A stretch of 31,781 bases of DNA, taken from a virus. Taxonomy: Duplodnaviria; Heunggongvirae; Uroviricota; Caudoviricetes. The translations under genes and the position numbers were made by a program. The stretch is from IMG/VR virus record IMGVR_UViG_2579778929_000008. The stretch is one strand, 5' to 3'. Positions 809-30,447 of this stretch are shown piece by piece; within the stretch, counting starts at the first letter, position 1, and the number at the start of each line of letters is the position of its first letter. A model generated the notes under the pieces. It was not told the DNA's origin and did no database searches. It worked only from the letters and a program-made list of their open reading frames with translations.

Positions 809-920
809 GGGTGCTTGAGGCTATCTGCCTCGGGCATGAACACCAAAGGCAGATAGAGAAAAGCCCCAGTTAACATTACGCGTCCTGCAAGACGCTTAAC
901 ATTAATCTGAGGCCAATTTC
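809..920 (+). promoter_or_regulatory. hok mRNA 5' leader (tac/ucb-like region), putative -10 TAGAAT at 796-801 just upstream
   Basis: GTGCTTGAGGCTATCTGCCTC...GGCAGATAGAGAAAAGCCCC resembles the 5' leader of plasmid R1 hok mRNA as I recall it, with the same stem-forming repeats (CTGCCTC / GGCAGA). Confidence 0.4.
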
Positions 921-935
921 ATGCTAGACACATGT
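865..935 (-). ncRNA. sok: Expected Sok-like antisense RNA (position approximate)
   Basis: Placed by analogy with hok/sok loci, where Sok is antisense to the mok translation-initiation region. No promoter was confidently identified, so coordinates are an estimate. Confidence 0.25.
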
Positions 936-1133
936 AGGTTAGCCTCTTACGTGCCGGAAGGCAAGGAGAAGCAGGCTATGAAGCAGCAAAAGGCGATGTT
1001 AATCGCCCTGATCGTCATCTGTTTAACCGTCATAGTGACGGCACTGGTAACGAGGAAAGACCTCTGCGAGGTACGAATCCGAACCGGCCAGACGGAGGTC
1101 GCTGTCTTCACAGCTTACGAACCTGAGGAGTAA
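921..1133 (+). CDS. mok: mok-like overlapping reading frame (modulator of killing)
   Basis: ATG at 921 opens a 70-codon frame that overlaps and ends with hok at 1133, the arrangement of hok/mok loci. Confidence 0.5.
   Translation: MLDTCRLASYVPEGKEKQAMKQQKAMLIALIVICLTVIVTALVTRKDLCEVRIRTGQTEVAVFTAYEPEE
978..1133 (+). CDS. hokD: Hok-family type I toxin, 51 aa (HokD/RelF-like)
   Basis: AAGGAG (963-968) then ATG at 978. Product MKQQKAMLIALIVICLTVIVTALVTRKDLCEVRIRTGQTEVAVFTAYEPEE matches my recollection of E. coli HokD/RelF. TAA at 1131-1133. Confidence 0.85.
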   Translation: MKQQKAMLIALIVICLTVIVTALVTRKDLCEVRIRTGQTEVAVFTAYEPEE

Positions 1134-3010: not shown

Positions 3011-3763
3011 ATGAACCTTGAAGCCTTACCAAAATATTACTCCCCAAAATCTCCAAAATTGAGCGATGACGCTCCAGCGACAGGCACCGGTTGTTTAACA
3101 ATTACGGATGTAATGGCAGCGCAGGGGATGGTGCAGTCGAAAGCACCACTTGGGTTGGCCTTATTTCTGGCAAAAGTTGGTGTTCAGGACCCTCAGTTTG
3201 CGATTGAAGGCCTGCTAAATTACGCGATGGCACTGGATAACCCGACATTGAACAAATTGAGTGAAGAAATCCGGTTACAGATTATTCCTTACCTCGTGAG
3301 TTTTGCCTTTGCTGATTACTCCAGGTCTGCGGCAAGTAAGGCTCGCTGTGAGCATTGTTCAGGTACGGGATTTTATAATGTATTGCGCGAAGTGGTGAAA
3401 CACTACAGACGCGGGGAATCTGTAATCAAGGAAGAATGGGTGAAGGAACTATGTCAGCATTGCCATGGTAAGGGCGAAGTCAGCACAGCGTGCAGAGGGT
3501 GTAAGGGTAAAGGGATTGTTCTGGATGAAAAAAGAACCCGGTTTCATGGCGTACCGGTATATAAGATTTGTGGGCGTTGTAATGGAAACCGGTTTAGTCG
3601 TTTACCGACCACGCTGGCACGACGTCATGTCCAGAAGCTGGTACCAGACCTGACCGATTATCAGTGGTATAAGGGGTATGCGGACGTCATTGATAAACTG
3701 GTAACAAAGTGCTGGCAGGAAGAAGCATACGCGGAAGCGCAATTGAGGAAGGTGACGAGATAA
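3011..3763 (+). CDS. quuQ: Late-gene antiterminator Q (250 aa, zinc-binding)
   Basis: GGAG (3000-3003) 7 nt before ATG at 3011 (track ORF starts at TTG 2981). Cys clusters CEHCSGTG...CQHCHGKG...CRGCKGKG are typical of phage Q proteins. Sits immediately upstream of the lysis region. Confidence 0.8.
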
Positions 3764-3824: not shown

Positions 3825-3870
3825 TTCTCAACGATGGGCTTTGTGTATCCGACGTTTAGAAAAAAGTAGA

Positions 3871-3896
3871 AAACCCGCTGATAAGCGGGTTTTTGT
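3871..3896 (+). terminator. Intrinsic terminator (tR'-like) downstream of Q
   Basis: AAAA-CCCGC-TGATAA-GCGGG-TTTTT; the hairpin is flanked by an A-run and a T-run, so it could act in both directions. Confidence 0.6.
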
Positions 3897-4269
3897 GCTT
3901 TAAATGGGGCAATAGAGATATTGAATCTCATCCCGGGATAAACATTGGGAGTTGAAGGTCCACGCGAACCATTTATCCGGCAAAATTCCACGCGTAATCC
4001 TGTGGTAATTTCTTCTGCATCTCGAAGATTGAGAGCTGAAACGTGAAGCTGGGCATCGATACGCCATCGGATGGGAATATAAGACCTTTGCTGCTTTTGT
4101 AGTCAAAGTTTTTGACAATTCCTGTCATTTTAGGGGACAGAAAAACTCCTTAATACTGATAACCTGGTGCACCATACACACGTTCCTGGAGAAAACTACT
4201 TTGTTGATAGGGTTGAAGGTGGCTGGATGTCTAAAATAAACATTGCTTCATATGTTCAACTATGAGTTA

Positions 4270-4438
4270 ATGACTGCGTCGGTTTGAAGAACAGACGATA
4301 TACGAAGTAGTTTACTAAAGCAGTTCTCATTTCAGGTGTTATTCACTTATTCCTTCTTTGAGTCTCTCCAATTAAGTACGAAGTCGTTTCTGTTATGCAA
4401 ACCATTTATGCCGAAAGGCTCAAGTTAAGGAATGTAGA
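4270..4438 (+). promoter_or_regulatory. Long cold-shock-type 5' UTR of the cspB-like gene
   Basis: About 170 nt of leader containing TCGGTTTGAAGAACAGACG near its 5' end and GCCGAAAGGC near the start codon, both reminiscent of the cspA-family 5' UTR. Boundaries approximate. Confidence 0.45.
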
Positions 4439-4654
4439 ATGTCAAATAAAATGACTGGTTTAGTAAAATGGTTTAACGCTGATAAAGGTTTCGGCTTTAT
4501 TTCTCCTGTTGATGGTAGTAAAGATGTGTTTGTGCATTTTTCTGCGATTCAGAATGATAATTATCGAACCTTATTTGAAGGTCAAAAGGTTACCTTCTCT
4601 ATAGAGAGTGGTGCTAAAGGTCCTGCAGCAGTAAATGTCATCATTACTGATTAA
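4439..4654 (+). CDS. cspB: CspA-family cold-shock protein (71 aa)
   Basis: [38 protein letters not shown]... carries RNP1 (KGFGFI) and RNP2 (VFVHF) motifs. Assigned cspB from memory and from Qin gene order. Confidence 0.8.
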
Positions 4655-4934
4655 AATTCATCGCTCGTCTGTATACGATAACGAAGAAGGCTGATGCCTG
4701 AGTAGAGATACGGACAGAGTAGTGAATATTGGATCTCTTTAATAAAAAGTAAGGAGGTCCAATACATGAAACAATGGCCAGCATATTTGGCAAAATCTTA
4801 ATCAGGAAAAGTATGCTAACCATTGTGGTGAAGTGCAGGTTTGCTGCATGAATAGTTTTACAGCAGAAGCTAACTGCTGGCATGGCAAAACAAAGTGCGT
4901 AAGTGGATGACTCCCACAAAAAGCACCACAATCT

Positions 4935-4958
4935 CAAACCCGCTCAGGCGGGTTTTTT
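4935..4958 (+). terminator. Intrinsic terminator
   Basis: CCCGC-TCAG-GCGGG hairpin (4938-4951) followed by TTTTTT (4952-4957). Confidence 0.55.
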
Positions 4959-5017
4959 ATTATCTGCTTTAAATATATTATTAAAATATAAAAAATACTT
5001 GTTACTAATAAAATCAA

Positions 5018-5188
5018 TCAGGCTACAGCTTTAAGATTTGTCTGGAATACTTTGTTGCAATGAGGGCAGATCAAAAGGGCACCTTTTTGTACTCTTGAAA
5101 AACTGTGTTCTGACTCTTGGGTGCAGTTTGGGCAGGAACATTTAACGAGATAATTACGGCGTGATTTTGAGTCTTTACGTTCTGACAT
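5018..5188 (-). CDS. Small zinc-ribbon protein (56 aa)
   Basis: On the minus strand, AGGAAAA precedes ATG at 5188. Product MSERKDSKSRRNYLVKCSCPNCTQESEHSFSRVQKGALLICPHCNKVF... has CxCPxC...CPxC. Track ORF 5018..5239 begins at an upstream in-frame start with no RBS. Confidence 0.5.
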   Translation of the reverse strand: MSERKDSKSRRNYLVKCSCPNCTQESEHSFSRVQKGALLICPHCNKVFQTNLKAVA

Positions 5189-5407
5189 AGGCTTTTCCTG
5201 TATAAATGGCCGTATACAGTACACTAAATATGAAAACATTTCTCGTATTATTATTTTATATATAACTTTCTTTCAAAATAATTACTCACATTTTTAATGT
5301 GTATGTTTCTTTAGCGCCGTTGAGAACAACGTGTGCTGTCAAAACTACCCCGTAGACTCCGATCTTTTCAAACATATTGCACCATCCGTGTACATCGGGG
5401 TGAGGAT

Positions 5408-5623
5408 ATGAAATCAATGGATAAGTTAACAACAGGTGTTGCCTATGGCACATCGGCGGGTAATGCTGGTTTCTGGGCATTGCAGTTACTCGATAAAGTA
5501 ACTCCGTCACAGTGGGCTGCAATCGGTGTGCTGGGTAGCCTGGTTTTTGGCCTGCTGACGTATCTGACAAATCTTTATTTCAAGATTAAAGAAGACAGGC
5601 GTAAGGCTGCGAGAGGAGAGTAA
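5408..5623 (+). CDS. essQ: Class II holin / pinholin (S21-like) with dual-start motif
   Basis: [71 protein letters not shown] closely resembles the phage 21 S holin as recalled. Met1-Lys-Ser-Met4 gives the antiholin/holin dual start. Track ORF starts further upstream (5333). Confidence 0.8.
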
Positions 5624-5627
5624 TCCA

Positions 5628-5935
5628 ATGACTCAAGACTATGAACTGGTTGTGAAAGGAGTCCGTAATTTTGAGAATAAAGTTACGGTAACTGTAGCCT
5701 TACAGGACAAAGAACGCTTTGACGGTGAAATTTTTGGCCTGGATGTCGCCATGGACCGTGTTGAAGGAGCTGCGCTGGAGTTTTATGAGGCAGCAGCCAG
5801 AAGGAGCGTCCGGCAAGTCTTCCTGGAAGTAGCAGAAAAATTGTCAGAAAAAGTTGAGTCTTATCTGCAGCATCAGTACTCCTTTAAGATTGAAAATCCT
5901 GCCAATAAGCACGAGCGTCCTCATCATAAATATAT

Positions 5936-5939
<4 letters not shown>
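5628..5939 (+). CDS. ydfR: YdfR-like protein (103 aa) between holin and endolysin
   Basis: ATG at 5628 is 5 nt after the holin stop; its stop overlaps the endolysin start (ATGA at 5936-5939). Position and length match K-12 Qin ydfR as recalled. Confidence 0.6.
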
Positions 5940-6963
<1,024 letters not shown>

Positions 6964-7325
6964 GGTAATATTAAATCGGAACATTTACATCGCGGAATGT
7001 AAAATTTAAATAAAAAGGACTCTTCCATGAGCCAAAATTCCTGAAATCTTAAGGGTAAGATAAAAGGTCTTAATCAGAATGACACGTTTTATTAATAAAT
7101 AAAGCTATTCTTTCATTGCTGTGTTTTTCTTTACAAAAGTAATCCTTGCTATGGGTGGTTAATCATGCGTTAATGGTGTTCTGGTTTGTTACAAATTTAT
7201 CTGAAGCAGTCATTGTTATAATTTTATTATTTGTACCTCTTGAGATTTCCTTGTTGGTTTTTCTCTCTGATATTTTTTTTCGGACCATTCTGCCCAAGGG
7301 CTAATTTCTTCAAAAGGTAATAATT

Positions 7326-7538
7326 ATGTCTAACAAAATGACTGGTTTAGTGAAATGGTTTAACCCTGAAAAAGGTTTTGGTTTCATCACGCCGAAAGAT
7401 GGCAGCAAAGATGTGTTTGTCCATTTCTCAGCAATTCAGAGCAACGATTTCAAAACATTAACTGAGAATCAGGAAGTTGAATTTGGTATTGAGAACGGAC
7501 CTAAAGGTCCTGCCGCTGTTCATGTAGTGGCGCTTTGA
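7326..7538 (+). CDS. cspI: CspA-family cold-shock protein (70 aa)
   Basis: [70 protein letters not shown] matches my recollection of CspI; preceded by a long AT-rich leader. Confidence 0.8.
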
Positions 7539-7548
7539 GGTAGACAAT

Positions 7549-7737
7549 ATTACAAACCATATTCACTTTAGATGCCCGTGTTGTCATGGTTCCCAGTATA
7601 GAACATCATCTTTTGATGTTTCTGACATGAATCCTTTCGGGGCAAAATGTATCTTTTGTAAATCAATGATGATTACATTTGATAATATTTCACAATACTT
7701 AAATGCCAGCCGTCTGTCGTTGGATTTAAAAAAGTGA
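7549..7737 (+). CDS. Zinc-ribbon-like ORF with no canonical start codon (possible ATT start or decayed gene)
   Basis: Open frame from 7528 to TGA at 7735-7737 encodes ...HIHFRCPCCHGSQYRTSSFDVSDMNPFGAKCIFCKSMMITFDNISQYLNASRLSLDLKK. No ATG/GTG/TTG lies upstream of the CPCC motif; GAGG (7537-7540) sits 8 nt before an ATT at 7549. First in-frame ATG is at 7627. Confidence 0.25.
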   Translation: MTNHIHFRCPCCHGSQYRTSSFDVSDMNPFGAKCIFCKSMMITFDNISQYLNASRLSLDLKK

Positions 7738-7809: not shown

Positions 7810-8040
7810 ATGAAAAAAATCATAGTTTTTTTTAACTCTGAACCAGCAGTGGTAGTGCCAGCGATGACTGGAGTTAACACCATCATGCGTGAATATCCAA
7901 ATGGCGAAAAAACACACCTTACTGTAATGGCCGCAGGGTTTCCATCTCTGACCGGAGATCATAAAGTCATTTATGTAGCCGCGGATCGACATGTTACTTC
8001 AGAAGAAATTCTGGAAGCAGCAATAAGGCTCTTGAGTTGA
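7810..8040 (+). CDS. Hypothetical small protein (76 aa)
   Basis: ATG at 7810, TGA at 8038-8040. Product MKKIIVFFNSEPAVVVPAMTGVNTIMREYPNGEKTHLTVMAAGFPSLTGDHKVIYVAADRHVTSEEILEAAIRLLS has protein-like composition. No strong SD; track ORF begins upstream at 7768. Confidence 0.4.
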   Translation: MKKIIVFFNSEPAVVVPAMTGVNTIMREYPNGEKTHLTVMAAGFPSLTGDHKVIYVAADRHVTSEEILEAAIRLLS

Positions 8041-29863: not shown

Positions 29864-30447
29864 TGGCATTCAGAATGAGTGAACAAGCACGGACCATAAA
29901 AATTTATAATCTGCTGGCCGGAACTAATGAATTTATTGGTGAAGGTGACGCATATATTCCGCCTCATACAGGTCTGCCAGCAAACAGTACCGATATTGCA
30001 CCACCAGATATTCCTGCTGGCTTTGTGGCTGTTTTCAACAGTGATGAGGCATCGTGGCATCTCGTTGAAGACCATCGGGGTAAAACGGTTTATGACGTAG
30101 CGTCAGGGGGCGAGTTATTTATTTCTGAACTCGGTCCGTTACCGGAAAATGTTACCTGGTTATCGCCGGAAGGGGAGTTTCAGAAGTGGAACGGCACAGC
30201 CTGGGTGAAGGATACGGAAGCAGAAAAACTGTTCCGGATCCGGGAGGCGGAAGAAACAAAAAACAGCCTGATGCAGGTAGCCAGCGAGCATATTGCGCCG
30301 CTTCAGGATGCTGCAGATCTGGAAATTGCAACAGAGGAAGAAATCTCGTTGCTGGAAGCCTGGAAAAAGTATCGGGTGTTGCTGAACCGTGTTGATACAT
30401 CAACTGCACCTGATATTGAGTGGCCTACGAACCCTGTCAGGGAGTAA
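29863..30447 (+). CDS. tfa: Tail fiber assembly protein Tfa (194 aa)
   Basis: Start overlaps the stf stop (TAATG). [79 protein letters not shown]... matches lambda Tfa as recalled. Confidence 0.9.

Follow-up and report, generated by a model that had tools for sequence, protein, structure and literature searches.

The zinc-ribbon gene ynfU of Qin-type prophages and its recurrent association with cold-shock genes

The ynfU locus and its identity

The DNA analysed here (hereafter the window) is the full 31,781-nucleotide stretch of IMG/VR virus record IMGVR_UViG_2579778929_000008, and it carries a Qin-like prophage that is more complete than the one in K-12, its terminase, portal, capsid and tail genes being present. 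Its landmarks run from the antiterminator gene Q through a terminator-like hairpin, probably the tR'-type terminator of the late leader, and a set of accessory genes to the holin (Table 1). The open reading frame (ORF) under study lies in the accessory ("moron") stretch that separates the Q antiterminator from the lysis cassette, where GC is low (35-41%, as against 47% for the lysis genes), and it is read in the opposite direction to late transcription. The initial annotation had described a 56-aa minus-strand protein with CxCPxC...CPxC spacing, placed between cspB and the holin gene and separated from the lysis cassette by an AT-rich region, and our analysis agrees: the ORF list gives this protein with its cysteines arranged as C17-x-C19-P-x-C22 and C41-P-x-C44, both neighbours flank it, and the 219-bp spacer (5189-5407) has 35.2% GC compared with 50.4% for the whole window.

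Table 1. Features of the window around ynfU and elsewhere in the prophage, with the evidence for each.
Feature	Position	Strand	Evidence and remarks
sok antitoxin RNA of the hokD locus	809-983	+	Rfam, 117 bits, above gathering score
Q-type antiterminator ydfT	3011-3763	+	Carries DnaJ-like CxxCxGxG repeats
Strong hairpin, T runs on both sides	3870-3893		~110 nt downstream of Q
cspF remnant	~3938-4140	minus	Frameshifted/partial annotation in identical region of strain 2014C-4587
cspB with cspA-type thermoregulator 5' UTR	4278-4701	+	Rfam RF01766, 158.9 bits against a threshold of 78
cspB CDS	4439-4654	+	Convergent with ynfU
GC-rich hairpin between convergent cspB and ynfU	4936-4955		Plus-strand terminator scan; 8 pairs, then T run
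ynfU CDS	5018-5188	minus	56 codons plus stop; ORF list, PF23499, NF038384, K-12 match
Conserved ynfU upstream block	5189-5246	minus	Alignments of 81 and 43 upstream regions; promoter and/or 5' UTR
Shine-Dalgarno CAGGA	5196-5200	minus	7-8 nt before ATG; each position in 93-100% of 43 diverse loci
Motif gTG-TAnnGT, here GTGTACTGT	5216-5224	minus	-10-like; 27 nt before ATG
Sigma-70-like match TTGAAA-18-AATAAT	5247-5276	minus	Consensus scan, 10/12 matches; Escherichia version only
Class II holin essQ/essD	5408-5623	+	Divergent from ynfU; RefSeq annotation under match; lineage-specific neighbour
ynfQ, YmcF-like	7549-7737	+	PF23641, E 1.7e-32; directly after cspI; starts at non-canonical ATT
IS009	30206-30404	+	Rfam, 223 bits, above gathering score

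Sequence matches identify the ORF, with near certainty, as ynfU, a gene already described from Qin-type lambdoid prophages that encodes a 56-aa zinc ribbon of the YnfU family. Its product matches the Pfam family PF23499 "YnfU" (E 2.5e-31, 107.7 bits against a cut-off of 27, residues 1-49 of 49 profile positions) and the NCBIfam model NF038384 "YnfU family zinc-binding protein" (79.8 bits against a cut-off of 36). In E. coli K-12 MG1655, ynfU is b4776 (1640805-1640975), which lies in the cryptic prophage Qin, flanked by essQ and cspB; the window gene occupies the orthologous position, between cspB and the Qin holin, and its protein is identical to K-12 YnfU at 55 of 56 residues, the one difference being N6D. 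The initial annotation was not aware of such a gene at this point of K-12 Qin, yet b4776 is annotated exactly there. The surrounding DNA (4900-5500) occurs in 1662 of the 5426 complete E. coli genomes searched, as a rule at ≥99% identity, and these genomes carry a ynfU annotation adjoining essD/essQ, while gene order around ynfU agrees between the window and strain 2014C-4587. Given the Pfam match, a median pairwise dN/dS of 0.107 (1116 pairs among 83 homologous loci) and this occurrence among E. coli genomes, the sequence record puts ynfU far beyond a chance ORF.

The gene is thus already known, with a K-12 annotation, Pfam and NCBIfam families of its own and demonstrated translation. YnfU was found by ribosome profiling with stalled initiation complexes and was confirmed by chromosomal SPA tagging and western blotting, which showed it at the highest level among the new small proteins of that study in uninduced K-12 grown in LB at 37 C (Weaver et al. 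2019), and PIRT-Seq (2025) independently scored ynfU as translated; published K-12 data therefore speak against an untranslated ORF. Other mentions of ynfU in the literature are lists or remarks in passing, and the literature that mentions ynfU or b4776 reports neither a function nor a cold-shock test. A silver-nanoparticle evolution study recorded an intergenic ynfU/cspB polymorphism in one population at a frequency of 0.28, which is uninformative here.

Other small genes of the prophage deserve brief mention. The ynfQ product has a CxxC...CxxC arrangement of its own, and the prophage thus encodes, next to two of its csp genes, small Cys-rich proteins that are unrelated to each other. The cspF gene, a remnant in the window, is intact in phage HannyBb, and between Q and ynfU (4200-7400 of that genome) the HannyBb annotation lists ~25 tiny ORFs while missing both cspB and cspF; scans of this run for a tRNA or repeat array returned 0 tRNAs and 0 tandem repeats, and we regard it as an annotation artefact laid over cspB, cspF and other sequence.

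Start codon, upstream block and transcription signals

The ORF list encloses ynfU in a longer minus-strand ORF of 73 codons (5018..5239), within which the 56-aa form starts at the internal ATG 5188 and yields MSERKDSKSRRNYLVKCSCPNCTQESEHSFSRVQKGALLICPHCNKVFQTNLKAVA, a small basic protein of 6.4 kDa with a pI of 9.4. Comparison across loci identifies the 56-aa start as the real one, because an ATG at this position and a Shine-Dalgarno-like sequence are found in 83 of 83 homologous ynfU loci, the N-terminal extension is unconserved and the K-12 annotation uses the 56-aa form. We rejected the 73-aa form from ATG 5239, whose unconserved extension would also take in the invariant TAnnGT motif described below.

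The ~70 nt upstream of the ynfU ATG are conserved in every genomic context in which the gene was found, and the block, the ATG and the Shine-Dalgarno sequence are together retained in 14 or more genera, even where protein identity falls to 57%. Within the TAnnGT motif, T5221, A5220, G5217 and T5216 are invariant in 43 of 43 diverse loci and the preceding G5222 is present in 42 of the 43; a CC at 5208-5209 is also conserved. RNAalifold predicted no pairs and no consensus RNA structure for the same 43 upstream regions, such that conservation acts at the level of sequence and a structured RNA in the 5' block was set aside. Because of this result, the block reads best as a putative promoter with a -10-like element, followed by a short leader and the Shine-Dalgarno sequence, that moves together with ynfU. 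The sigma-70-like match farther upstream adds weak evidence, as the consensus scan returned 4 such sites across the scanned region, where chance alone predicts 3.7.

At the other end of the gene, the GC-rich hairpin between the convergent genes is probably a shared bidirectional terminator of cspB and ynfU; its use by ynfU we infer from its position 63 nt past the ynfU stop codon. The ~280-nt stretch from the cspB stop to this hairpin also holds a plus-strand mini-ORF (4767-4802) of 11 codons, MKQWPAYLAKS, preceded at 8 nt by a strong AAGGAGG Shine-Dalgarno sequence. Escherichia loci share this mini-ORF, among them K-12 (MKQWLAYLAKS), whose annotation omits it.

The zinc-ribbon family and its look-alikes

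Homologues of YnfU are 45-60 aa long, mostly 54 or 56 (n=83), and uniformly basic (pI 9.36-9.96), and the window protein shows the hallmarks of the family, that is, two CPxC knuckles (here C19-P-N-C22 and C41-P-H-C44) in a stand-alone protein of ~50-60 aa. In the family alignment P20, C22, S26-E-H-S-F30, K35, P42 and C44 are invariant and C17, C19 and C41 are at least 90% conserved. The low dN/dS indicates, from sequence comparison, that YnfU is under strong purifying selection. An AlphaFold2 model built on the family alignment (mean pLDDT 71.6) has four short strands and one short helix between disordered ends, and with its expected strands it joins PF23499 and NF038384 in upholding the zinc-ribbon call of the initial annotation. 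Since C17 is missing from a distant branch of the family, a single structural zinc would be held by C19, C22, C41 and C44.

The family is, as far as sequence searches reach, restricted to Enterobacterales. This follows from a word-indexed search, which returned 49 clusters that all carry PF23499 and nearly all come from Enterobacteriaceae, from an exhaustive profile search of 1.84 billion representatives, which returned only 36 at E ≤0.001, and from the genera of the distant members, already named "YnfU family", namely Hafnia, Serratia, Erwinia, Brenneria, Cronobacter and Mangrovibacter. Eight deposited phage genomes encode YnfU, with an identical protein in 5 of them. A scan of IMG/VR found 241 contigs that encode a YnfU relative; the 80 that were kept are all 100% identical Qin-type copies, and the scan was dropped as a source of diversity because none added any.

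The predicted zinc site bears on a first alternative, in which YnfU would serve metal handling (zinc buffering, or iron or zinc stress) and not macromolecular regulation. The four conserved Cys ligands are compatible with such a role, and one preprint lists ynfU with suf genes among those up-regulated under hypomagnetic conditions and labels it an iron-metabolism gene. That label comes without evidence there, however, whereas the model suggests that the lone zinc site of this 6.4-kDa protein belongs to a structural zinc ribbon, and no metal-homeostasis genes recur near ynfU, all of which leaves metal handling a remote prospect.

Searches beyond the family returned only generic zinc-ribbon matches for the YnfU fold. 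All PDB sequence and profile searches stayed below threshold (Tim15, E 0.012-0.014; L44e, 0.038; PA0128, 0.11-0.31), and none of the three can be counted as a relative. Weaver et al. (2019) noted a resemblance to the PhnA/YjdM zinc ribbon, and the N-terminal ribbon of that family (PA0128, PDB 2AKL) does share with YnfU a CxxC...CxxC arrangement of similar spacing. PhnA/YjdM is also the best non-YnfU Pfam match (E 1.3e-4), but at 22.4 bits it falls below the cut-off of 30.8, and YnfU lacks the PhnA C-terminal domain, ending 12 residues past the second knuckle. The "cold shock small protein" YmcF/YnfQ (PF23641) is likewise ~60 aa long with a CxxC...CxxC arrangement, lies next to csp genes and is present in the same prophage; homology between it and YnfU was rejected on an hhalign probability of 1.9%. 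A PHROGs search of YnfU gave a best E of 0.0026, to a family of unknown function, and the PADLOC anti-phage defence models gave 0 families at E up to 1.

The likeness to Tim15 deserves separate treatment, as it underlies a second alternative, namely that YnfU is a zinc-ribbon modulator that works purely by binding a host protein, as Tim15/Hep1 does on Hsp70 or YacG on gyrase, with neither a nucleic-acid role nor a tie to csp genes. YnfU resembles the DNL zinc finger of the Hsp70 escorts Tim15/Zim17/Hep1 locally, over both knuckles and the loop between them (S-H-S...KG...I-CPHC; E ~0.01 against PDB sequences), and this weak, sub-threshold likeness (E 0.012 with phmmer and 0.014 with a profile, rank 3 in Foldseek) would fit a protein-binding role, as would the invariance of the loop motif SEHSFSRVQKG and the expectation of Weaver et al. 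(2019) that most small proteins act on larger ones. The zf-DNL Pfam score for YnfU is 13.4 bits against a cut-off of 27, the segment that defines DNL is absent from the YnfU family, whose C-terminal segment is variable with TNL only in Escherichia sequences, and there is no special structural similarity between the two. We hold a purely protein-binding modulator of this kind to be improbable.

Genomic neighbourhood and possible function

To place ynfU in its wider context, we compared 80 loci, each from a different species. In 57 of them a csp gene is found no more than 1 kb from ynfU, and in 23 this linkage is absent; csp hits number 0.52 per kb inside that distance and 0.009 per kb in the flanks from 1 to 6 kb, a local enrichment of ~56-fold. 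The commonest layout is that of the window, with ynfU convergent with a cspB-like gene and often then a cspF-like gene. The association loosens in the distant branch of the family: among five members that were checked, a CSD gene lies ~0.8 kb off in Hafnia and ~2 kb off in Cronobacter, and none is nearby in those from Serratia, Erwinia and Citrobacter.

Other small genes recur as well. A YmcF/YnfQ-like gene is found near ynfU in 8-10 of the 80 loci, and a YnfN-like protein of 75 aa is encoded divergently upstream of ynfU in 21-26, with the YnfN-like neighbours being 59% identical to the YnfN of the window. In the latter ynfN is full-length (7810-8040, plus strand, 76 aa); K-12 annotates only 51 aa, and no Pfam family covers it. 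Phage PHB10 carries a ynfN-like/ynfU/cspB-like/cspF-like cassette beside its integrase. These divergent YnfN homologues and the PHB10 arrangement suggest an ancestral ynfN/ynfU/cspB/cspF cassette that was split in Qin by the lysis genes. In two Kosakonia loci, a neighbour within ~0.1-0.3 kb of ynfU looks, by its N-terminal sequence, like an IbpA/IbpB-type small heat-shock protein, which would be another stress-protein neighbour in place of a csp gene.

Outside prophages, ynfU is found at budR-budAB in Klebsiella and Raoultella and at fliE-fliF and yeeED in Kosakonia and Erwinia, and further chromosomal neighbours include ABC transporters, a small heat-shock protein and prlC. The csp linkage could reflect the hitch-hiking of one mobile cassette and not a shared function. 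In a further alternative, ynfU would merely ride along neutrally with a mobile csp cassette and its product would be functionless, as its place in a cryptic prophage and its carriage alongside csp genes in varied contexts might lead one to suppose. The selection signal (dN/dS ~0.11) argues strongly against this, however, as do the conservation of start codon, Shine-Dalgarno sequence and upstream block over such divergent genera and the persistence of ynfU alone at many chromosomal sites, and we regard a functionless product as the least credible of the readings weighed here.

The neighbourhoods also speak to the suggestion, made from the window by itself, that the protein could influence late or lysis gene expression. 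YnfU would then be a nucleic-acid-binding late or lysis regulator that acts on the spacer shared with the holin gene or on the late transcript, and several features appear to invite this: ynfU is divergent from the holin over the AT-rich spacer in Qin-type prophages, the same divergence, there without a csp gene, is found in Klebsiella phage ST13-OXA48phi12.4, the protein is basic, and the lambdoid layout implies that Q-dependent late transcription would cross ynfU in the antisense direction. Across species, however, a lysozyme or EssQ-type holin gene lies within 2.5 kb of ynfU in only 10 of the 80 loci, essentially Escherichia/Shigella Qin-type prophages and a few others, as against the 57 with a csp gene, and many family members sit in the chromosomal, non-prophage contexts listed above. 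In PHB10 no lysis gene is annotated in the ~4-kb flanks of the integrase-linked cassette, and YnfU is made in uninduced K-12, where Qin is cryptic.

Late regulators of this sort exist among phages: Ogr of P2 and Delta of P4 are small zinc proteins with four Cys that activate late genes. YnfU has no match to these among the listed Pfam hits (E up to 10), and it shows no family-wide linkage to late genes. The lysis suggestion was accordingly not borne out by the comparison, and we judge a late or lysis regulator very unlikely.

The explanation that we favour, taken whole, is that the ORF is ynfU and that ynfU is an autonomous, csp-linked accessory gene, to which we assign a probability of roughly 0.55. 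Under this explanation ynfU would be a lysogen-expressed unit that stands outside the late/lysis operon, because it has a portable upstream block of its own, lies antisense to late transcription and is expressed, according to published work, in uninduced K-12. The invariant SEHSF(S/T)R(V/I)QKG between the knuckles and the basic N-terminal tail, with R4, K5 and R11, may jointly form a binding surface through which YnfU would contact RNA, the ribosome or some larger protein. Since its conserved neighbours are csp genes, often with YnfN-like and YmcF-like genes as well, YnfU would most likely act in a cold-shock/RNA-chaperone stress module. As a mechanism, csp-linked binding of RNA or of a partner is a tentative proposal drawn from sequence, which we think somewhat doubtful as it stands. 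A more specific version, rather unlikely in our estimate, would make YnfU the dedicated partner of the prophage cold-shock module (CspB/CspF, YnfN and YmcF-type proteins), binding RNA, the ribosome or Csp and thereby tuning RNA-chaperone activity or translation at low temperature.

The repeated tight linkage to csp genes and the upstream block that travels with ynfU are modest but concrete leads on what YnfU does. If YnfU does prove to be a dedicated partner of the cold-shock module, a y-gene would gain a function, and the puzzling csp clusters found in lambdoid prophages would gain one too.
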